DNA from: Kiritimatiellia bacterium
GTDB lineage: Bacteria > Verrucomicrobiota > Kiritimatiellia > JAAZAB01
Assembly: GCA_040767085.1 (NCBI GenBank)
Contig: JAXGPF010000017.1
Coordinates: 1-57,738 of the forward strand
Direction of reading: 5' to 3'
DNA: 57,738 bases
The notes under the pieces were generated by a model. It was not told the origin of the DNA. It searched no databases and was given only the letters and a program-made list of their open reading frames with translations. This document shows, in pieces, positions 4,828 through 57,100 of this stretch (its first letter is position 1; each line of letters begins with the position of its first letter). The position numbers and the translations under genes are program-made.

Positions 4828-6123
4828 TTATTGCGTTGCCTGGCGCAGCGCCTGATCCATATCCGCCTGAATATCCGCCACGTCTTCCAGGCCGACCGAC
4901 AACCGGATGTAATCGTCGCTGACACCCGTGGCCTGGCGCTCCGCCGGGGTCAATTGCTGGTGTGTGGTGGAGGCCGGGTGGATTACCAGGGTCTTGGCGT
5001 CGCCGATATTCGCGAGATGCGACAGCAGGCGCACGGAATTGATAAAACGGCGCCCCGCTTCCAGCCCGCCCTTGATCCCGAACCCAACCATGCCCCCGAA
5101 TCCATGTTGCAGGTAACGGGCGGCGACCGCATGATCCGGACTGCCGGGCAGGCCCGGGTAACAGACCCAGTTGATCCGGGGATCGCCCTGCAGCCAGCGG
5201 GCGATGGCCAGGGCGTTGGCCGAGTGCCGTTCCTGGCGCATGCGCAGCGTTTCCAGTCCCTGGATGAACATCCACGAGTTGAACGGACTCAACGCGGCGC
5301 CGAAATCGCGCAGCAGGGTCAAGCGTGTTTTGAGAATGAAGGCCAGGTTGCCCGCATCCGGCAGGTTGCCGAAGGCATCCCAGTACACCAGTCCGTGATA
5401 ACTCGGGTCGGACTCGGTAAATTCCGGGAATTTGCCGTTGTTCCACGCGAAGCGCCCGCCGTCCACGATGATCCCGCCGAGGGATGTGCCATGCCCGCCG
5501 ATATACTTGGTAGCCGAACTGGCAATGATATCCGCCCCGTGGGACAACGGCTGGACCAGGCCTGCGCCGATGGTGTTATCCACCACCAGTGGCACGCCTG
5601 CCGCATGCGCGATTTCAGCCAGCGCGGCGAAATCCGGGACATCCAGCTTGGGATTGCCGATAGTCTCGACGTACAGGGCGCGCGTCCGCGGGGTAATCGC
5701 CCGGCGGAAGGCTTCCGGATCGCGCGAATCGACAAAGCGCGCGGCCCGGCCGATTTTCGGGAAAGCGTGATGCAGGAGCTGGTACGTGCCGCCGTAGAGG
5801 TTGTTGCCGGCGACAATTTCATCGCCCATGCGGGTAATAGCCAGCAGGGTGTAGGAAATCGCCGCCTGGCCCGACGCCACCGCCAGCGCGCCCGTGCCGC
5901 CTTCCAGGGCCGCCATGCGTTTTTCAAACACATCGGTGGTGGGATTCATCAACCGGGTGTAGATATTGCCGAATTCCTTCAACGCGAAGAGATCGGCGGC
6001 ATGCTCCGCGCTCTTGAACATGTACGAGGTGGTCATGTATAACGGCACCGCGCGGGAGCCGGTAGCACTGTCCGGCGTATGGCCGGCATGCAACGCCAAT
6101 GTGTCAAATCCGAATTTTTGCAT
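4828..6123 (-). CDS. metY: O-acetylhomoserine aminocarboxypropyltransferase (sulfhydrylase)
   Basis: GNIYTRLMNPT, SATKYIGGHG (PLP lysine), HLANIGDAKTLVIHPASTTHQQL. Confidence 0.93.
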   Translation of the reverse strand: MQKFGFDTLALHAGHTPDSATGSRAVPLYMTTSYMFKSAEHAADLFALKEFGNIYTRLMNPTTDVFEKRMAALEGGTGALAVASGQAAISYTLLAITRMGDEIVAGNNLYGGTYQLLHHAFPKIGRAARFVDSRDPEAFRRAITPRTRALYVETIGNPKLDVPDFAALAEIAHAAGVPLVVDNTIGAGLVQPLSHGADIIASSATKYIGGHGTSLGGIIVDGGRFAWNNGKFPEFTESDPSYHGLVYWDAFGNLPDAGNLAFILKTRLTLLRDFGAALSPFNSWMFIQGLETLRMRQERHSANALAIARWLQGDPRINWVCYPGLPGSPDHAVAARYLQHGFGGMVGFGIKGGLEAGRRFINSVRLLSHLANIGDAKTLVIHPASTTHQQLTPAERQATGVSDDYIRLSVGLEDVADIQADMDQALRQATQ

Positions 6124-6259
6124 TTTTATGCACTCCTCCCCAAGGCGGGCTTTGCCCGCAACCCAATTTTGCTTTTCTTCCTCGCCGACACGCGAGACCC
6201 GACACGCGACACGAAAAGGTTTGCTACGGAAAATGTATCAGGTCGAAACGGAACGGTTT

Positions 6260-6761
6260 CAATAGCATCCCATAGAAAACTGATTTATTCTCTCACAAAG
6301 TCGCAAAGCCACAAAGAAGATGGGATTATTTATTACGGAACCGGATAAGCGGTTAGCCACCCTCCTTCGTCAAGACTACGGAGGGCAAGCCCGCCTTCGC
6401 TAAAGCTACGGCGGGCAAGCACAGGCACAGGAAAAAGCATGGATGTAATGGAATTGAGCGGCATGCCGCGCTGTCCGCTAAGCGGACATGGATCGGCGGA
6501 CACCCGGATACCCGAATTGATTCGCGTATCAGGGTGTCAGCCGATCCGCCAGACCGGCAGATGCCGGTCGGCGCGGCAGTCGTAAATGATTTGATTTTGT
6601 GCATTTTATGCATTTTGTGGCAAAATTGCCCTGCTTGGTGTGCCCGGTGGGAACGATGCCATTGGCCAAAAAACCGGAACTTAAGATTATAAGCAAACTC
6701 CAATTTCCTTAAAGAATATCGTCGTTTCCATCTGATAAATCATATCTATGGGATGACAGTG
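6260..6761. mobile_element. MITE-like non-autonomous element (502 bp) with imperfect TIRs and 9-bp TSD
   Basis: Direct repeat gaacggttt at 6251-6259 and 6762-6770; ends caatagcatcccataga... and ...tctatgggatgacagtg; inner tgatttat/ataaatca also complementary. Confidence 0.75.
6360..6419 (+). repeat. Two tandem 30-nt hairpin (REP-like) units
   Basis: ccctcc-ttc-gtc-aa-gac-tac-ggaggg-caag and cccgcc-ttc-gct-aa-agc-tac-ggcggg-caag. Confidence 0.85.
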
Positions 6762-6838
6762 GAACGGTTTAAGAACCTCTGCCAGGCCGGTTCATGCAAG
6801 TCAATTTGCCAGCTTGGCGGCGGATGTCAATCCAAAAC

Positions 6839-8176
6839 TCAGCGGTAAGCGTCATGCAGCAGGCAGTGCGCCATGGCCAGCAGCCCAACGTGCAGGAACA
6901 GCAAGGGCCAGGCGTATTTCCACAGCCGCGGATGCCGGGCGCCGGCCCACCCCATCCAGATCGCCGCCGGCGCCAGGATGGGAAACATGTAACGTCCCGC
7001 GGGCTGGTAATCGTACAAGACCGCGTACAAGACCAGCAGCGCCAGGTTAAAGGCTGCCAGGCTGGCCACCCAGTACAACCCCCAGCGGACAGGGCGGTCG
7101 CGCGCGGTCCACGCCGCCGCGACGAACAACGCCGCCGCCGCCGGCGCCAGGAATTTCAACGCGGCATAAACTTGCGGATCGAAACTGACCGTACCGTAGT
7201 CGAACTTGCCGTAGAAATAAGCCAGGGTCTCCGTGAAGAAATTGCGCCGCACCAGTTCCACCAGCACCGGCCATGATACATGCGGGGCCATGACCGCCCG
7301 CGGCCCCGGCTGATCCACGCCAATCGAGGCCAGCCACGCCGGCGTCGGCGCCCCGGGCATCAACTCGCCATACAGCATGAAATTGCGCGCATACCAGCCG
7401 CCGGCCAGCAGCAGGGCCATCGCGGCGGAGGCCATGGCCAGCCGCCAGAGCGCGCGCCCGGATAGCCGGCGCGCGCAGGCCAGGCCCACCCCGCCCAGGG
7501 CCAGCCAGGGCAGGTAAACCCAGTAATTCAGCTTGGCGGTCAACAGCAAGCCGATGCCCGAGCCGAACCACCAGGCCGCTTTCCAGGGAGGTGTGCGGTC
7601 GGGCGCGGCGGCGGCCGCTGCCATCGCATTGACCGTCACTGCCGCCAGCCAGCCGGAAACCGCCAGCGCGTAGGCGTCGGCATTGACGTAACTGCAAACA
7701 TAGACGGCCTGTGGTATCAGGGTTATCACGGCCACCGGCAAAACCGCGCCGGCGCCGCGGCCGCCAGCGCGGCGGACGGCCGCCAGCGCCAGGTTGAGCA
7801 ACGCCAGGCCCATCAGGCCGGACATCAAACGCGCGCCGATGTGCCAATCCAGTCCCGCCCAGCGGCGCCCGGCGGCGGCCGCTGCGGCCGCTAAAACGTA
7901 ATTCAGGGCGGGGAACTTGTTGTAACTGGAAGCATTGCGCGTGAAACAGTCCGTATCGTCCACCCCATAGACCGGCAGACGGCGATGCTCCAGGATGAAT
8001 TTTACGCTGTACCGGAAATGATTGTCTTCATCCGGCGCCCGGTCGTACGGCACCGTAAAAATCCAAACCAGGGCGGAGGCGCCGAAAACCAGGTTGAGCA
8101 GGGCCGCCGGCCAGCATCGGCGCGCCCAGGCGGCAAGCGTCAGTATCATCGGCGGTAATCCCCCTTGCTCAGCCAT
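6839..8176 (-). CDS. Polytopic membrane protein, probable GT-C fold glycosyltransferase (ArnT/PMT/DUF2142-like)
   Basis: PDE motif after first TM helix, FPALNY, VNAD, LTAKL, QPAGRY; many TM segments; start could be 8149. Confidence 0.65.
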   Translation of the reverse strand: MAEQGGLPPMILTLAAWARRCWPAALLNLVFGASALVWIFTVPYDRAPDEDNHFRYSVKFILEHRRLPVYGVDDTDCFTRNASSYNKFPALNYVLAAAAAAAGRRWAGLDWHIGARLMSGLMGLALLNLALAAVRRAGGRGAGAVLPVAVITLIPQAVYVCSYVNADAYALAVSGWLAAVTVNAMAAAAAAPDRTPPWKAAWWFGSGIGLLLTAKLNYWVYLPWLALGGVGLACARRLSGRALWRLAMASAAMALLLAGGWYARNFMLYGELMPGAPTPAWLASIGVDQPGPRAVMAPHVSWPVLVELVRRNFFTETLAYFYGKFDYGTVSFDPQVYAALKFLAPAAAALFVAAAWTARDRPVRWGLYWVASLAAFNLALLVLYAVLYDYQPAGRYMFPILAPAAIWMGWAGARHPRLWKYAWPLLFLHVGLLAMAHCLLHDAYR

Positions 8177-13937: not shown

Positions 13938-14165
13938 CAGGGCTGCGTCATGCTCCCGCGCCTTGCGCGCCGTTCCGGATCAGAAGCGGCCAAGGGACCC
14001 AGGCTTTGCCAAGGCTACGCTGGGCAAGCTGGCCGCCCTACCATCGGAGCAGAAGCGGCCAAGGGACCCAGGCTTTGCCAAGGCTATGCCCGGCGAAGCC
14101 CGGCTTTGCCGGACTCAGCCGGCAAGCAGCACCGAGCCGTTTTTTCCGAGAATGACGCAGCCCTG
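13938..14165. mobile_element. MITE-like element (228 bp), 18-bp TIR, 9-bp TSD, inserted at the lnt stop codon
   Basis: cagggctgcgtcatgctc / gagaatgacgcagccctg (1 mismatch); tcaggcgcg at 13929-13937 and 14166-14174; internal 69-bp-period duplication. Confidence 0.85.
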
Positions 14166-40159: not shown

Positions 40160-40402
40160 CGCAGAGAGGGGCAAAGGATCAGAGGCACAAAGGATCAAAG
40201 GGGCCGGCATGCACACCCACACATTTAATTTCCGATCCTCCTTCGTGACCTTCGTGTCCTTCGTGGTTAAATCAGAAGGGGCAAAGGATCAGAGGCACAA
40301 AGGGGAAAGTGTTCCGTTTTCAGGCGTAAAACCATAAAACGGTAAACCTTAAAACTTACAAATTTCCGCTTTCGCGTTCTTTGTGTTCTTTTGTGGTAAA
40401 TT
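40160..40402 (+). repeat. Mosaic of 8-10-nt periodic repeats
   Basis: ggggcaaaggatcagaggcacaaagg twice, cttcgtgac/cttcgtgtc/cttcgtggt, taaaaccataaaac, gttctttgtgttcttttgtggt; inverted homologues at 43689-43830. Confidence 0.75.
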
Positions 40403-41388: not shown

Positions 41389-41419
41389 AACTGTAATTGA
41401 ATCCGGATTGCGCCACACA

Positions 41420-41526
41420 GTGGCGCCACTACATCCGGATCGGATTTGTAGCGGTCCGGCTTTGCCGGACATCGTTCCAGCGTAGGCAGGCGTGCCACGC
41501 CGAAGCCGGACGTAGGCGGGCCCTAC
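41420..41526. repeat. REP-like mosaic between convergent genes
   Basis: tgtagcggtccggctttgccggac and gccacgcc-gaa-gccggac-gta-ggcgggc; homologous to 35105-35168, 47094-47410 and 50879-50915. Confidence 0.7.
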
Positions 41527-43636: not shown

Positions 43637-43836
43637 ATGCATAAGTTCTTTCAAAAGTGTTCAATCTTCTGTATTTGTTGACTTTGCTCCTTTGATCCTC
43701 TGCCCCTTTGTGCCCCTTCCCTACAAAAGTCAACAGCGGGGAGAAATTCACCACAAAAGAACACTAAAGAACGCAAAAGGTCCAGGTACTGCCCCTTTGT
43801 GCCTTTGATCCTTTGCCCCTTTGCCCCTTTCCTCAT

Positions 43837-45628: not shown

Positions 45629-45880
45629 TTTGGTTCGAACGTAAAACCATAAAACCCTAAAACTTTCAAAACGTTAGTTTTGAGCATGGGGAAGAAATTT
45701 ATTGTTGAATGTTAAGTGTTTGGTTCGGACGTAAAACCATAAAACCCTAAAACCCTAAAACTTTCAAAACGTTAGTTTTGAGCATGGGGAAGAATATTTA
45801 TTGTTGAATGTTAAGTGTTTGGTTCGGACATAAAACCATAAAACCCTAAAACCCTAAAACTTTCAAAACGTTAGTTTTGA
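45629..45880 (+). repeat. Tandem triplication (90 and 99 bp periods) of an element containing (TAAAACCN)3-4
   Basis: Copies start at 45629, 45719 and 45818; the last ends 10 nt before the alr ATG. Confidence 0.9.
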
Positions 45881-47048: not shown

Positions 47049-47093
47049 TGTTTTGCGGGAGTGTGTGAGTGTTGCGGGAGACGGATTGGAGAA

Positions 47094-47410
47094 TGTAGTA
47101 GTCCGGCTTTGCCGGACGTTCCGTTCTGGATGCGCCCCGTCCTACCTCCGGATTCCGGATGCCCCACGCCCCTGCTTCGTCAGACTACGCAGGGCAAGCA
47201 GTGGCTGCGCCCGGCGTAGCTGCAGCGAAGCCGGGCGCCACTACATCCGGATTTCTTCTTATGTAGTAGCCGAACGGCGTTCGGCATCTGGATTGTAGCG
47301 GCCGAACTGCGTTCGGCATAGCTTCAGCGTAGGCGGGCCGTGCCCGGCGTAGCTGCAGCGAAGCCGGGCGCCACTACATCCGGATTTGCAATAGCCGAAC
47401 GGTGTTCGGC
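47094..47410. repeat. BIME-like cluster of GTAG-type palindromes and GTA/GAA hairpins between convergent genes
   Basis: tgtag(t/c)(a/g)g + palindrome three times; gcccggcgtagctgcagcgaagccgggcgccactacatccggattt at 47209 and 47342. Confidence 0.8.
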
Positions 47411-47524
47411 TTCTGCCTGCCTCGGAATTCTTTATGGTACCAGAGCTTGGTCGCCATATTTGGGAATGCCGGGACAGGGGCGTCCCGGCTCCATGCCAGA
47501 AATGGGACGGGGCCTTGAGGCTGC

Positions 47525-50360: not shown

Positions 50361-50868
50361 TCCTGCTTCGTCGGACTACGCAGGACGCTGTCCTGATTCG
50401 TCGGACTACGCAGGACGCTGTCCTGATTCGTCGGACTACGCAGGACGCTGTCTGATTCGTCGGACTACGCAGGACGCTGTCCTGATTCGTCGGACTACGC
50501 AGGACGCTGTCCTGATTCGTCGGACTACGCAGGACGCTGTCCTGATTCGTCGGACTACGCAGGACGCTGTCCTGATTCGTCGGACTACGCAGGACGCTGT
50601 CCTGATTCGTCGGACTACGCAGGACGCTGTCCTGATTCGTCGGACTACGCAGGACGCTGTCCTGATTCGTCGGACTACGCAGGACGCTGTCCTGATTCGT
50701 CGGACTACGCAGGACGCTGTCCTGATTCGTCGGACTACGCAGGACGCTGTCCTGATTCGTCGGACTACGCAGGACGCTGTCCTGATTCGTCGGACTACGC
50801 AGGACGCTGTCCTGATTCGTCGGACTACGCAGGACGCTGTCCTGATTCGTCGGACTACGCAGGACAAG
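50361..50868 (+). repeat. Tandem array of 17 x 30-bp hairpin units, no spacers
   Basis: Unit tcctgattcgtcggactacgcaggacgctg; unit 4 has a 1-bp deletion; first unit reads tcctgcttcg, last ends ...caggacaag. Confidence 0.97.
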
Positions 50869-50965
50869 CCCCAGCCGTGCCCGCCGAAGCCGGGCGTAGG
50901 CGGGCGCTACTACAGGACAGAAATACTTGTCCGATATAGCTTCAGCGTAGTCGGGCGTTCATCAT

Positions 50966-51197: not shown

Positions 51198-54100
51198 TTA
51201 CATGCCCAACTGCATAGCGCGGGCAACGTAACCTTCGCTGGAGAGCATGACCTGCCAGGCGCCTGTGCCGTCGGTCTTGCGAACCGCCAGGTCCGCCAGT
51301 CCGTCGCCATCGTAATCGCCCGGCGCAGCTTCCCAGCCTTCGCCGCCGAACACCTGCGTTACCGACGCGTAGCCGGCCTTCGACATCCAGACCGTCCACA
51401 CGCCTGCCGCCGCATCGTATGTGCCGGGATCGGCCAGACCGTCACCGTCATAGTCCGCGCACGCAGGCGCCAATGCCTGCCCGCCACCCTGGCGCAGCGC
51501 CTTCCGGGCCAGCGCATACTTCTGCGCCGAGAGCTTCACGCTTACCTCGCCGGCGCCGTCCATCACGGCCGGATCGGCCAGACCGTCGCCATCGTAGTCC
51601 GCCGCCGCCGGCAGACTCCCCACTCCGCCCAGGAATGCCGCCAGATCGGATTGCGCATACCCGGCGGCGGACAGCATCGCCGACCAGCTCCCAGTATCAG
51701 CTTCATACACTGCCAGGTCGCCCAGGCCATCGCCGTCGTAATCCGCCGGCGCCGCCGCCCAGCCCAGACCGCCAAGCTGCTTCTCAGCCAGGGCATACCC
51801 AGACCCGGACAGCATAACCTGCCAGACACCCGTGTTCTCGTCGTACGTGCACGGATCCGCCAGGCCATCGCCGTCGAAGTCCGTGCCAGCCGCCGCCTTC
51901 ACCGGCAACGTCACCGCGAACTCAACTGTTACCGACTTGGCCGCGTTCCACTCATCATTACCGGCCTGGCTGGCAGTGACAGTCACCGTGCCGGCTGCCG
52001 TGAAGGTCAGGACATTGCCGTTGAGTTCCGCCGGCCCGGTCACCGCAAACACCACCGGCAACCCGGACGAAGCTTCAGCTTCCAGCGCCACTTCCGCGGT
52101 GATCAACTGATCTTCAATCACAGAGAATGTGATAGCCTGGTCAGCCTTCACGACTTCTTCCGGCTCCTCGGGGTCAACCGGGTCTTCCGGATCAACCGGT
52201 TCTTCCGGATCCACAGGATCTTCCGGATCAACCGGGTCTTCCGGATCTTCTTCGGAGCCAACCGGCGCGATCGTGAGGCTATTCGCGCTGATAGTAGAAG
52301 ACTTGCCATCCACAACCACGTGCGCCCTGGTACCCAGAATCAAGGCGCCAGTCGCATCCTCGGGCACCTGCACGGTGATTTGAGCCGTGGCTGCCACCGG
52401 CAGCGCCGGCGCCATACAGACCGCCTCGCCACGCTGCACTTCCGGCAAGCCATCGCCATCTATGGAAAGCACTGTCCATCCTTCCGGCAATTCAGGCAAC
52501 CAGGCCAGACCATGCACGGTGCCATTCGGCGCAAACATGGACGCCGTGAGAGTAATGGGTTCGCCAGCGGTATAGTTGGCCGGACCGCTCAGTGACACAA
52601 TCGGCTGCAGAGCCAGATACTTGGTCGGGCCGGGGCCGTTGGTTGAACTGGAATAACCATCATCCAGATCGGACAGATCCACATGATACCCGCCAGCGCG
52701 CCAGTAACCCATAACTTTGTCCATTTCCGCAGCACCAATCACCCAGTCAGTTCCATCATAATCGGCGCTATGCAATCCGTCGCTAGCAGGACCAGTATAA
52801 AGTGCATTCGTTGCATTATACCCATCATAGGATTCAGCGCACGGATAATAGCTTGCCGACCGCCAGAACGCCTGGACATAGCTCAATTCGAACACATTAA
52901 TATAACGTGTAGGCGACCGGAAATCGGAGCTATGATAGCGGAACACCGGCAACACATCCGTCGGGACGGTATTGGTATGCGTTGACCCAACACGGCTGTA
53001 TTCCACCGTCGCGCTGATGTCGTTGGACACCGCTGCATTACCGGGTACATCCACCGTGTATTGGAAGACCACCGAAGTCCCGGAAACGGTCGTGAAGGTG
53101 ATGTCGGACCCCGACACCTCAGCCCCACCACCCGAAGCGGAATTCAAGGTCCACCCATCCGGCAATGTCGGCGTCCACAGCAGATACGTGAACTCATTGG
53201 TGATCGTAATGGAATTGCTGACCACCATAGTCCCGGTTGAAGGCGACCGATAGCCCTGGCAAGACTGCGTGATGTCCGCAGCAGCCGTCAGGGTGATCGG
53301 ATCGGAATCAACTGTCATCGTTCCGGCCGTGAACGTCAGTATATATTCCGTTTCCGGATTACCGGAGACCACCAGATTGGTGAAGGTAATAACGCCACCA
53401 TCGGCGGTAACGGCCGTTGTGCCACTGACTGTTCCGGAGAGATCATTAGTGATCGAAACCGTCACTTCCGTGGTGCTGTCGCTTATCACCAAGTTGGTGA
53501 ATGCATCGTAGATGCCCACCACCGGCTGGGTTTCCAGTTCCTGGCCATTGACCCCGCCGACCGGCTGGGTGATCATGCGCAGTTGGGTGGCGGTACCAAC
53601 CGTCAGCACCACTTCCGCCGTGTCATCAATCGCCACGCCGTTCAGTTCGCCGCTGATCACCGCCGTGCCAGGCGTCCCGCCGCCGGTGAACGTCGCCGTG
53701 AACGTACCATCCACATTCGTCGTCACCGCACCGATCGTCCCCAGCGTCGCGCTCAGCGTCACCGCGTTCGTGCCCGTCGTAGTCACGTTGTTCCCAAACG
53801 CATCCTTCAACTGCACCGTGATCGCCGAGGTGCCGCCAACATTCGTCGAAACTGGGTCGGCAGTGATCGCCGTCTGGGTCGGATCAGCCGCGCCAACCGT
53901 CAGTTCCACGTCCGCCGGAGTCGCGATCGCCACGCCGTTCAGTTCGCCGCTGATCACCGCCGTGCCAGGCGTCCCGCCGCCGGTGAACGTCGCCGTGAAC
54001 GTACCATCCACATTCGTCGTCACCGCACCGATCGTCCCCAGCGTCGCGCTCAGCGTCACCGCGTTCGTGCCCGTCGTAGTCACGTTGTTCCCAAACGCAT

Positions 54101-57100
54101 CCTTCAACTGCACCGTGATCGCCGAGGTGCCGCCAACATTCGTCGAAACTGGGTCGGCAGTGATCGCCGTCTGGGTCGGATCAGCCGCGCCAACCGTCAG
54201 TTCCACGTCCGCCGGAGTCGCGATCGCCACGCCGTTCAGTTCGCCGCTGATCACCGCCGTGCCAGGCGTCCCGCCGCCGGTGAACGTCGCCGTGAACGTA
54301 CCATCCACATTCGTCGTCACCGCACCGATCGTCCCCAGCGTCGCGCTCAGCGTCACCGCGTTCGTGCCCGTCGTAGTCACGTTGTTCCCAAACGCATCCT
54401 TCAACTGCACCGTGATCGCCGAGGTGCCGCCAACATTCGTCGAAACTGGGTCGGCAGTGATCGCCGTCTGGGTCGGATCAGCCGCGCCAACCGTCAGTTC
54501 CACGTCCGCCGGAGTCGCGATCGCCACGCCGTTCAGTTCGCCGCTGATCACCGCCGTGCCAGGCGTCCCGCCGCCGGTGAACGTCGCCGTGAACGTACCA
54601 TCCACATTCGTCGTCACCGCACCGATCGTCCCCAGCGTCGCGCTCAGCGTCACCGCGTTCGTGCCCGTCGTAGTCACGTTGTTCCCAAACGCATCCTTCA
54701 ACTGCACCGTGATCGCCGAGGTGCCGCCAACATTCGTCGAAACTGGGTCGGCAGTGATCGCCGTCTGGGTCGGATCAGCCGCGCCAACCGTCAGTTCCAC
54801 GTCCGCCGGAGTCGCGATCGCCACGCCGTTCAGTTCGCCGCTGATCACCGCCGTGCCAGGCGTCCCGCCGCCGGTGAACGTCGCCGTGAACGTACCATCC
54901 ACATTCGTCGTCACCGCACCGATCGTCCCCAGCGTCGCGCTCAGCGTCACCGCGTTCGTGCCCGTCGTAGTCACGTTGTTCCCAAACGCATCCTTCAACT
55001 GCACCGTGATCGCCGAGGTGCCGCCAACATTCGTCGAAACTGGGTCGGCAGTGATCGCCGTCTGGGTCGGATCAGCCGCGCCAACCGTCAGTTCCACGTC
55101 CGCCGGAGTCGCGATCGCCACGCCGTTCAGTTCGCCGCTGATCACCGCCGTGCCAGGCGTCCCGCCGCCGGTGAACGTCGCCGTGAACGTACCATCCACA
55201 TTCGTCGTCACCGCACCGATCGTCCCCAGCGTCGCGCTCAGCGTCACCGCGTTCGTGCCCGTCGTAGTCACGTTGTTCCCAAACGCATCCTTCAACTGCA
55301 CCGTGATCGCCGAGGTGCCGCCAACATTCGTCGAAACTGGGTCGGCAGTGATCGCCGTCTGGGTCGGATCAGCCGCGCCAACCGTCAGTTCCACGTCCGC
55401 CGGAGTCGCGATCGCCACGCCGTTCAGTTCGCCGCTGATCACCGCCGTGCCAGGCGTCCCGCCGCCGGTGAACGTCGCCGTGAACGTACCATCCACATTC
55501 GTCGTCACCGCACCGATCGTCCCCAGCGTCGCGCTCAGCGTCACCGCGTTCGTGCCCGTCGTAGTCACGTTGTTCCCAAACGCATCCTTCAACTGCACCG
55601 TGATCGCCGAGGTGCCGCCAACATTCGTCGAAACTGGGTCGGCAGTGATCGCCGTCTGGGTCGGATCAGCCGCGCCAACCGTCAGTTCCACGTCCGCCGG
55701 AGTCGCGATCGCCACGCCGTTCAGTTCGCCGCTGATCACCGCCGTGCCAGGCGTCCCGCCGCCGGTGAACGTCGCCGTGAACGTACCATCCACATTCGTC
55801 GTCACCGCACCGATCGTCCCCAGCGTCGCGCTCAGCGTCACCGCGTTCGTGCCCGTCGTAGTCACGTTGTTCCCAAACGCATCCTTCAACTGCACCGTGA
55901 TCGCCGAGGTGCCGCCAACATTCGTCGAAACTGGGTCGGCAGTGATCGCCGTCTGGGTCGGATCAGCCGCGCCAACCGTCAGTTCCACGTCCGCCGGAGT
56001 CGCGATCGCCACGCCGTTCAGTTCGCCGCTGATCACCGCCGTGCCAGGCGTCCCGCCGCCGGTGAACGTCGCCGTGAACGTACCATCCACATTCGTCGTC
56101 ACCGCACCGATCGTCCCCAGCGTCGCGCTCAGCGTCACCGCGTTCGTGCCCGTCGTAGTCACGTTGTTCCCAAACGCATCCTTCAACTGCACCGTGATCG
56201 CCGAGGTGCCGCCAACATTCGTCGAAACTGGGTCGGCAGTGATCGCCGTCTGGGTCGGATCAGCCGCGCCAACCGTCAGTTCCACTTCCGCCGTGTCTCA
56301 ATCGCCACGCCGTTCAGTTCGCCGCTGATCACTGCCGTCGCCGGCGTTGTCCCGCCAGTGAACGTCGCCGTGAACGTCCCGTCCAAGTTCGTCGTCACCG
56401 CGCCGATCGTCCCGCCCGTCGCGCTCAACGTCACCGCGTTCGTCCCCGTCTCGGTGATGTCGTTCCCATACGCATCCTTCAACTGCACCGTGATCGCCGA
56501 GGTGCCGCCAACATTCGTCGAGACCGGATCGGCCGTGATCGTCGTCTGGTCTTTGTCTGCATCCGCCGGCGTCACCGTAATCAGACCGGACTGCACAGGG
56601 GTCAGAGCCGGATCACCGAAGGCCGCCTGGATATTGCCCGAACCGACCAAGTGTCCGGTGAAGGTCGCGGAACCATTATCATTGTCAACTAGATCGCTTT
56701 GTTCCACGTCCGGAGTTACATTTTCCATCGTCCAGGTCGCATCCGTCACCAGCGCAACGAAGTTCGTGTCCTCATCACGGGCAATCGAGTAAACCGTGAT
56801 CGAAGAACCAGCCGTAACACTCTGCGCCGCCACTACATCGCCGCTGCCATTAGCCTCGTCTTCCACCCGTATCATGGTCGCCGGCTTGATTTCCAGCGGG
56901 TCGGGCTGCATGGGGTATTCCGTCGGGTTATTATCGCCGACAAACCGGTAAATGATGGTGGAATAGATTTCATTGGTGCCGGTTTCGCTGGCCGGAATGA
57001 TGACGTCATAGGTAAACGTCACGGGGTTTTCCGTCGGTAAAGTAGTAAACGAAATCTGATTCCCATATTCATTGGAAACGATTGCGCCAACAGCGCCAGC

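Follow-up and report, generated by a model that had tools for sequence, protein, structure and literature searches.

Repetitive extragenic palindromic (REP) sequences and bacterial interspersed mosaic elements (BIMEs) of the Escherichia coli type, which go with the transposase TnpA-REP, a group 2 REP-associated tyrosine transposase (RAYT), are GC-rich imperfect palindromes of 25-35 nt dispersed in the spacers between genes (PMC8266576, PMC3479197). In E. coli, REP activity needs both the bulge, a conserved mismatch in the stem, and the tetranucleotide GTAG, and the substrate is folded single-stranded DNA (PMC8266576). In 57,738 nucleotides of a Kiritimatiellia bacterium (contig JAXGPF010000017.1, positions 1 to 57,738; hereafter the window) we have studied a hairpin unit of about 30 nt, in which an unpaired module of three nucleotides opposite three interrupts a stem that varies by compensatory change. 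Natural filled and empty sites show that this unit is inserted as a block, and we regard it as probably a mobile DNA unit of the REP class, miniature and gene-less.

The likeness to E. coli-type REPs is extensive. The unit is a short, GC-rich, imperfect palindrome, it is present in many copies that are mostly intergenic, its covarying stems surround a conserved in-stem mismatch, and it has a GTAG, subfamilies related by complementary changes, inverted pairs and clusters. Unlike the described GTAG REPs, it has neither the tag at the foot nor a REPtron: its GTAG lies in the symmetric 3x3 internal loop, the unpaired tag being a 3' CAAG instead, and no transposase gene was found with units on both sides. 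It also differs in forming head-to-tail pairs and an array of 17 units, and in having a core that is common to many phyla among the matches listed. Head-to-tail dimers are rare in the REP families described (PMC3733652).

The GTAG and CGTC REP superfamilies, with their TIRYTs and TIRtrons (Di Nocera et al. 2013, PMC3733652), resemble the unit in being modular stem-loops with compensatory subfamilies, occasional insertion into genes and families common to distant organisms, whereas the unit is without the unpaired terminal GTAG or CGTC tag that defines them. Insertion sequences of the IS200/IS605 kind (IS608, ISDra2) are comparable in imperfect-hairpin recognition, in orientation bias and in insertion without inverted terminal repeats, and their transposases act on the lagging-strand template, which gives the orientation bias (PMC6006769). 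Unlike these, the unit is a single hairpin of 30 nt with no transposase gene and no fixed target tetranucleotide that we could see.

Four strings from the core have no occurrence in the full text of the literature searched or in the text supplements of PMC3733652, a comparison that excludes consensus-sequence figures, so that overlap with a described family is possible. A word search of the literature for REPs in the Planctomycetes-Verrucomicrobia-Chlamydiae (PVC) group and in Acidobacteria gave only two papers, both already cited. The preliminary description of this DNA had presented the hairpin as the best candidate for an undescribed system. This wording is too strong, as the hairpin behaves like a REP-type mobile DNA repeat and a conserved stem mismatch is already known from E. 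coli-type REPs (PMC8266576).

Results

Architecture and covariation of the hairpin

The unit is 30-33 nt long overall and consists of a hairpin of 25-28 nt and a short 3' tail. A variable outer stem of 6 bp leads to the fixed 3x3 mismatch, followed by an inner stem of 3 bp (GCY/RGC), a loop of 1-5 nt and, behind the hairpin, the tail, which is CAAG in most copies. The module is C-TTC-G opposite C-TAC-G and reads C-GTA-G / C-GAA-G on the complementary strand, which we call the GTAG strand.

The core CTTCG-N5-6-CTACG is found six times in the window, whereas 100 shuffles gave 0.09 on average and never as many as six. When non-complementary 3x3 interruptions of this stem architecture are counted over the organism's own genome (4.08 Mb, 28 contigs), TTC/TAC leads with 41 cases, 25 of which lie outside the array. 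Further non-complementary interruptions are over-represented in the same architecture genome-wide (TCC/GAG 30, GAG/AAC 25, AGT/AAA 24) and probably represent further repeat families.

A covariance model built from an alignment of 41 distinct copies matches the own genome 82 times at E<0.01 (67 outside the array), and unit 2 of the window (Table 1) is its top match at 50 bits. In these 41 copies 95.7% of stem cells pair, although pairing of the outer stem counts for less because the scan had selected for it; the two inner pairs free of that selection are CG in 27, UA in 13 and UG in 1, and CG in 17, UA in 17, GC in 2 and other in 5. Covariation in other genomes was assessed on at least 122 loci, found with a search pattern that leaves three stem pairs free. 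Among the matches listed, these pairs are complementary in 104/122, 109/122 and 120/122, against a mean of 61% and a maximum of 71% over 2000 shuffles for the first two. In addition, 18 distinct copies from an alphaproteobacterium and a candidate-phyla-radiation genome have changes on both sides in 7/9 pairs, a value reached by 2/500 shuffles, in an alignment fitted to the covariance model, which favours pairing.

The preliminary description proposed a hairpin family under selection for its structure, in which the stems covary around a fixed unpaired module, and the pairing in the 41-copy, 122-locus and 18-copy sets bears this out; the compensatory stem changes also hold in the larger alignment, where the first two free pairs of the loci from other genomes stand above all shuffles. 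No known Rfam family was matched: at gathering thresholds the whole window gives two tRNAs only and the hairpins go unmatched, and permissive searches of 6100-6800 and 47050-47520 gave only chance matches far below threshold.

The claim that TTC/TAC is fixed stands in part. It is the commonest form, but the invariant part is wider, since the fixed columns of the 41-copy alignment are the C-G pairs flanking the 3x3 loop, the loop itself and the G-C pair that opens the inner stem. Moreover, the genome has module variants TTT/TAC, GTC/TAT and TCC/TAC, and in GTC/TAT the GTAG becomes ATAG on the other strand. Swapped copies contain the entire module, C-GAA-G...C-GTA-G, flipped relative to the terminal loop, which we read as a sign that the module, and not the linear sequence, is what is conserved.

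The unit is inserted as a block

Sites emptied in silico were compared by BLAST with the own genome, giving 25 candidate empty counterparts, of which 12 were dropped (six redundant copies of the same backgrounds, five matches to the own locus or to other filled sites, and one of low identity). All 13 aligned pairs, from eight sequence backgrounds, differ by a single gap of 30-33 nt that corresponds to the hairpin and its tail, the tails being CAAG, CACAG, CGCAG or CAAGT. Unit 1 of the window is itself missing, as an exact 30-nt gap, from a paralogous copy of the surrounding repeat in the own genome (G000:C22:~407750).

The loops of other hairpins are a frequent site. A classical GTAG REP (minus strand GTAG-GGCGGCC-loop-GGCCGCC) is present in 17 empty copies of 26 nt and 9 filled copies of 57 nt, which differ by exactly 31 nt in the loop, and the copy at 13998 in the window is of the filled kind. 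Contigs from two DNA runs pass over 13998-14028, with only 22 letters, repetitive ones, on the shorter side, so that they may come from other loci. Other REP backbones also hold units in their loops in the filled/empty alignments. Of 69 units, 18 have a perfect outer stem of 6 bp or more no further than 6 nt away, against 2.4% of 5000 random intergenic segments of 30 nt. Between CGCGCGA and TTTTGG, four copies of one site hold units with differing, mutually compensated inner stems, which fits repeated insertion at this site better than divergence after a single insertion.

At junctions read by eye the left flank ends in A at 9/11, and no fixed target tetranucleotide was seen there. Between gene calls lie 64 of the 69 placed matches; three are inside calls and two at contig ends. 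These results show block-wise insertion of the unit into spacers, very often within the loops of other REP hairpins or beside an existing unit, and rarely into genes.

Some loci have a more complex structure. Two copies of a tRNA-like gene (C2:218244 and C28:158862) each have a perfect long palindrome at the 3' end, with TTCG paired with CGAA; one of them also carries a unit whose first 18 nt match an arm of the palindrome, which suggests recombination between inverted units, or local templating. By eye, locus L044 (G016:C150) has a 30-nt direct duplication around an insert of ~115 nt that ends with a unit, and the duplication takes in a stretch resembling the 5' end of an initiator-tRNA-like sequence. 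At other loci the hairpin is the seed of larger repeats: in an Omnitrophota metagenome-assembled genome (MAG; L114) tandem expansions of both half-arms surround a single complete unit, and in G040 (L047) a tandem repeat of ~187 nt has one unit per copy.

Orientation relative to replication

The GTAG strand is on the G-rich strand in 49/69 matches and, after neighbours were merged and two loci of mixed orientation dropped, in 41/58 (p=0.002). Where the flanking genes are co-directional, 26/32 loci follow the G-rich strand and 18/32 the gene sense. By backbone class, the direction of the G-rich strand is taken in 10/12, 14/17, 11/15, 8/12 and 3/5; in a sixth class, which consists of the inverted partners in doublets, the count is 0/4. 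Strand bias is absent from two classical GTAG REP families that this genome also has (8/18 and 12/24). If the G-rich strand is taken as leading, for which the sole support is that 60% of rough gene calls lie on it, the GTAG strand sits on the lagging-strand template. The GTAG strand is also predicted to be more stable, by ~1 kcal/mol, in 35/41 copies with DNA parameters and in 31/41 with RNA parameters. The replication-strand bias points to a single-strand mechanism.

Range across bacteria

Within the class, the covariance model matches 29/41 genomes, 18/24 in the same family and, outside it, 10/16 other families, with nearly identical hairpins in unrelated flanks. The organism of the window is present in landfill, sludge and digester habitats. 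A scan of one genome per species for CCGSCTTCGCNNNNGCTACGSCGG gave the at least 122 loci mentioned above, of which a few would be chance matches by our own estimate, and their records bear ~15 phylum-level labels. Among the matches listed are Acidobacteriota, Verrucomicrobiota, Kiritimatiellae, Lentisphaerae, Planctomycetota, Bacteroidota, Ignavibacteria, Alphaproteobacteria, Desulfobacterota, Bdellovibrionota, Nitrospirota, Omnitrophota, Hydrogenedentota, Marinimicrobia, Armatimonadota and several candidate-phyla-radiation groups, together with the cultured isolates Maricaulis sp., Niastella soli and Oceanicella sp.; a few, for example some labelled Actinomycetes, look like chance coding matches, and MAG labels can be wrong. 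An unpaired terminal tag, CAAG or CAGG, is present in 54/122 of them.

Five distant genomes each have 4-15 copies (5/5), with outer stems that vary and covary around the fixed core. The distribution is patchy, as 7/61 genomes of the Maricaulis order and 4/71 sampled Acidobacteriota have the hairpin. A phage collection gave no match, and a plasmid collection gave matches at chance level only (E at least 0.2).

Units inside genes and the RAYT-like genes

The own genome has seven Y1_Tnp loci, or up to ~12 by the REP-transposase model, and the only Y1 genes found in it are long and have the motifs NH[YF]H and Y[IV]HLNP. Two of 30 Y1 loci have a single strong unit within ~1 kb (L050, L203), and three paralogs in one region hold an embedded variant.

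In these RAYT-like genes a 31-nt GTC/TAT unit splits the reading frame between the codons of ..EYAGAL-Y and H-VMARGDR.., that is, between ..ALY and HVM.. of an intact paralog, and at 31 nt it shifts the frame. The insertion is present in the three paralogs of the own genome and in one gene each in three other species of the genus, four species in all (L224 in G002:C82, L225, L226 and L202/L223 in G000:C3:163,700-166,700). Among the four orthologous insertions the hairpin differs at 0-2 of 35 positions by our own reading, whereas the flanking query has a BLAST identity of ~82%. In one of the three other species, G002, 333 residues of intact frame follow the unit, and an ATG 14 nt upstream of the unit opens a frame of 347 residues that runs through the hairpin. 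The gene with the embedded unit could be a pseudogene lineage or a switch.

A second genic case is the tgt gene of a candidate-phyla-radiation genome, where the open frame runs through the unit and 140 residues match 130 profile positions. Units inside genes such as tgt and the RAYT-like gene recall the Rickettsia palindromic elements and the in-frame REP insertions described in PMC3733652 and, for subclass 2.4, in PMC6006769. In contrast to those in-frame insertions, the unit in the RAYT-like gene is 31 nt long and frame-shifting.

The flanks of the seven own-genome loci L001-L007 (G000) have a further feature: the Y1 genes are bracketed by inverted motifs GGGGTCAG(T/A)CC.. / ..TGACCC, in places in tandem. 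Judged by their letters, the GGGGTCAG inverted repeats appear to fit the GGGGWSAS inverted repeats of TIRYT genes (PMC3733652).

Copies in the window and their surroundings

The features of the window are collected in Table 1. The copies noted in the preliminary description at 6360, 6390, 13998, 47170, 47209, 47342 and in the array from 50361 are all present in the sequence, as are the swapped copies at 41494 and 50879, the former degenerate.

Table 1. Hairpin units, variants and associated repeats in the window.
Feature	Position	Strand	Description
Repeat-rich intergenic block with units 1 and 2	6124..6775		Copy of a long dispersed repeat, ~8-10 genome copies
Unit 1	6360..6389 (hairpin 6360-6385)	+	CCCTCC-TTC-GTC-AA-GAC-TAC-GGAGGG + CAAG, 30 nt
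Unit 2	6390..6419 (hairpin 6390-6415)	+	CCCGCC-TTC-GCT-AA-AGC-TAC-GGCGGG + CAAG, 30 nt
TTT/TAC variant unit	13998..14028	+	31 nt, CAAG end, nested in the loop of a GTAG-tagged REP at ~13986-14041
TTT/TAT variant copy, more degenerate	14066..14099 (covariance-model match coordinates)	+	35.3 bits
Empty REP backbone	41409..41431	+	GCGCCAC-loop-GTGGCGC; by eye against flanks of filled copies
Degenerate swapped copy	41494..41520	+	GAA...GTA order; sequence reading; no covariance-model match at E<=10
Unit	47170..47198 (hairpin 47170-47194)	+	CCCTGC-TTC-GTC-A-GAC-TAC-GCAGGG + CAAG; sequence, covariance model
Unit	47206..47235 (hairpin 47210-47235)	-	CCCGGC-TTC-GCT-GC-AGC-TAC-GCCGGG + tail (minus-strand reading); sequence, covariance model
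Second copy of the preceding unit	47339..47368 (hairpin 47343-47368)	-	Sequence, covariance model
Tandem array	50361..50865	+	16.9 units, period 30 nt, 99% matches, no spacers; unit TCCTGA-TTC-GTC-G-GAC-TAC-GCAGGA + CGCTG
Swapped variant directly behind the array	50874..50906	-	C-GAA-G...C-GTA-G with closing pairs; 27.4 bits

Unit 2 abuts unit 1 head to tail and belongs to another stem subfamily. By alignment of the own-genome copies, the dispersed repeat around them holds one, two or no units. In contigs from two public DNA runs whose flanking genes are ~92% identical to those here, only 22 other letters stand between 6123 and 6776; these resemble 6124-6146 by eye, which makes ~630 nt of the window extra. 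The dispersed repeat is ~450-650 nt long and highly structured: inside it are direct repeats (..cacaaagaagatg..ttaccac..) and a number of other hairpins.

The REP that houses the 13998 unit has its GTAG foot on the minus strand, and the backbone type of 41409..41431 has its loop occupied by a unit at other loci. The units at 47170 and 47206 are an inverted pair within a REP cluster, with convergent genes on either side. At 47240-47420 the units are interspersed with a second classical REP family (GTAG, then CCGAAC-nnn-GTTCGG), of which the genome has 24 loci that show no bias towards either replication strand.

The spacer with the array is ~1220 nt long here, against ~200 nt and ~311 nt for the orthologous spacers of two other genomes of the genus (G001 and G004). 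Across the three genus genomes, orthologous empty sites give length differences only, as the spacers are too diverged (coding identity 75-86%) for exact boundaries. A CRISPR array was rejected, since the period equals the 30-nt unit at 99% identity, there are no spacers, and the highest-scoring CRISPR repeat model reaches 17.6 bits where 35 are required; no search for cas genes was made. A small open reading frame behind the array, looked for with a type III toxin-antitoxin reading in mind, is absent.

Other repeats in the window are of different kinds. The AT-richer spacers 45642-45880, 40172-40355 and 43682-43830 have runs of the 8-nt units TAAAACCC, CAAAGGAT and CCCTTTGA, and also a 99-nt repeat in 2.4 copies. 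From 53596 to 56549 a 297-nt tandem repeat (9.9 copies, 98% identity) lies inside an open reading frame of 1695 residues (51198-56285, minus strand), which is probably a repetitive surface protein.

Discussion

A mobile unit of the REP class may be moved by a trans-acting enzyme, and a RAYT-like Y1/HUH protein is our leading candidate, put forward tentatively and by analogy. Several observations tell against it or against the wider explanation. The Y1 proteins of the own genome score 46-69 bits, below the NCBIfam REP-transposase cut-off of 80. By our reading they resemble subclass 2.1 of Quentin et al. in three traits, namely the motifs NH[YF]H and Y[IV]HLNP, the protein length and a weak C-terminal match to DnaA, and no REPs are reported for that subclass (PMC6006769). 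By a covariance-model scan of flanks up to ~1.5 kb, 0/30 Y1 loci have units on both sides. At 77 loci from other phyla, the 200 nt on either side of the hairpins, a short reach, hold 150 open frames, which gave no Y1_Tnp match and no recurring family, only unrelated housekeeping domains. The complete Maricaulis genome has 10 units and no match to Y1_Tnp or REP_Tyr_transpos. The GTAG, for its part, is not at the hairpin foot and is ATAG in the GTC/TAT variant. Finally, the strand bias comes from one draft genome on the assumption that G-rich means leading, and the gene calls, from a rough purpose-made caller, are crude.

Co-occurrence does not decide the matter. Y1 genes are present in 45/50 hairpin-bearing genomes, compared with 48/71 sampled Acidobacteriota, only four of which have hairpins, and 36/41 relatives. 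Hairpins are found in 28/36 Y1-positive relatives against 1/5 Y1-negative ones, an association of low power. The co-occurring RAYT/HUH gene that the preliminary description had suggested looking for is neither adjacent nor discriminating, and with no flanked Y1 locus, weak co-occurrence and a complete genome with units but without Y1, the Y1 link is an analogy and not a finding. What still speaks for it is the GTC/TAT unit embedded in the RAYT-like genes. Bolder, and in our judgement unlikely, is a version in which the units are the DNA substrate of a large orphan RAYT-like subclass (long Y1 proteins with NH[YF]H, Y[IV]HLNP and a DnaA-like C-terminal domain). At the replication fork, such proteins would take the folded GTAG strand as their substrate and insert the 30-nt unit into the single-stranded loops of other hairpins, and the copy embedded near the N-terminus would be an excisable switch whose precise excision would restore the frame.

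The alternative that survives best, though we hold it to be rather improbable, is that the hairpin is mobile without any Y1/HUH enzyme, moved by host replication and repair (template switching at extruded hairpins, gene conversion) or by another recombinase. Units occur in genomes without a Y1 match (the complete Maricaulis genome and G169, an Acidobacteriota genome), and no enzyme gene is adjacent in any phylum examined. The tandem array and head-to-tail pairs would fit slippage, and the 18 nt that the unit at C2:218244 has in common with the sequence just behind it are expected from local duplication or inverted-copy recombination. However, the core is nearly identical in unrelated flanks across phyla, which argues for copying from a master sequence with specific recognition rather than for de novo formation, and the different inner-stem variants at the same backbone site suggest targeted insertion. 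As for another recombinase, we considered an IS91-type Y2 transposase. The model PF04986 has a match in only 1/5 hairpin-bearing genomes and is absent from the own genome. IS91-type elements have a CAAG/GAAC target.

A structured RNA motif of loop-E type, with GUA opposite GAA, bound by an RNA-binding protein that might, for instance, stabilise or process transcripts, seems to us decidedly improbable. The GTAG strand does present GUA opposite GAA, purine-purine 3x3 loops between C-G pairs are stable in RNA, and the RNA parameters given above favour this strand. On the GTAG strand, GCCUUGGC would presumably give a CUUG-type tetraloop. The loop E or sarcin-ricin motif is, however, an asymmetric 4x3 loop with AGUA opposite GAA, a bulged G and a flanking A-A pair. 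The loop of the unit is a symmetric 3x3 closed by C-G on both sides, with an invariant, G-paired C 5' of GUA and without the extra A and bulged G, and for this reason we abandoned the loop-E-like identity first given to it, which no Rfam family supports either.

Position also speaks against an RNA element, even though REPs in general have been proposed as such (PMC3733652). The 69 placed matches comprise 37 in co-directional, 11 in convergent and 16 in divergent spacers, the last of these being crossed by no 3' end, besides the few in gene calls or at contig ends. Of the 37 with co-directional neighbours, the gene sense is taken by the GTAG strand in 22 and by the TTC strand in 15, so that there is no bias to gene sense, whereas the orientation tracks the replication strand; in addition, units lie inside coding sequence and inside other hairpins. 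Contigs from one RNA library cover parts of the neighbouring genes and not 6385-7018, but they show neither strand nor ends, and absent cover proves nothing.

Least probable of all is a double-stranded DNA site selected by the host (for a nucleoid protein, gyrase or a regulator) with incidental mobility. REP and BIME sequences reportedly bind host proteins in E. coli (PMC2817692), and in four species the hairpin inside the RAYT-like gene has changed far less than the sequence around it. Compensatory changes, however, preserve intra-strand pairing, which would be superfluous in a duplex site; the asymmetric mismatch module is retained even when flipped, the position relative to genes is not fixed and the distribution among relatives is patchy.

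We thus return to the mobile REP-class unit. A trans-acting enzyme for single-stranded DNA would recognise it as a folded single strand at the replication fork, reading the fixed purine-purine mismatch module with its GTAG much as E. coli TnpA-REP needs GTAG and the stem bulge. The active strand would be the GTAG strand, on the lagging-strand template, and the tandem array would be a secondary amplification of one inserted unit. Taken whole, with the single-strand mechanism, the Y1/HUH candidate and the array amplification all included, this explanation is on balance the one we favour, with only modest confidence.

For a REP kind, the range is unusually wide, and units tend to nest in the loops of other hairpins. 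The borders of the moving unit are known to 0-3 bases, one genome provides both filled and empty natural sites, and the target preference, for the loops of other hairpins or for a place beside an existing unit, is visible. The unit is also a hazard for annotation, as it gives rise to false open frames and to insertions of 10 codons within genes, and its repeats may break assemblies. Because many phyla have the conserved core, an experiment on its recognition in a single organism would be informative for many.

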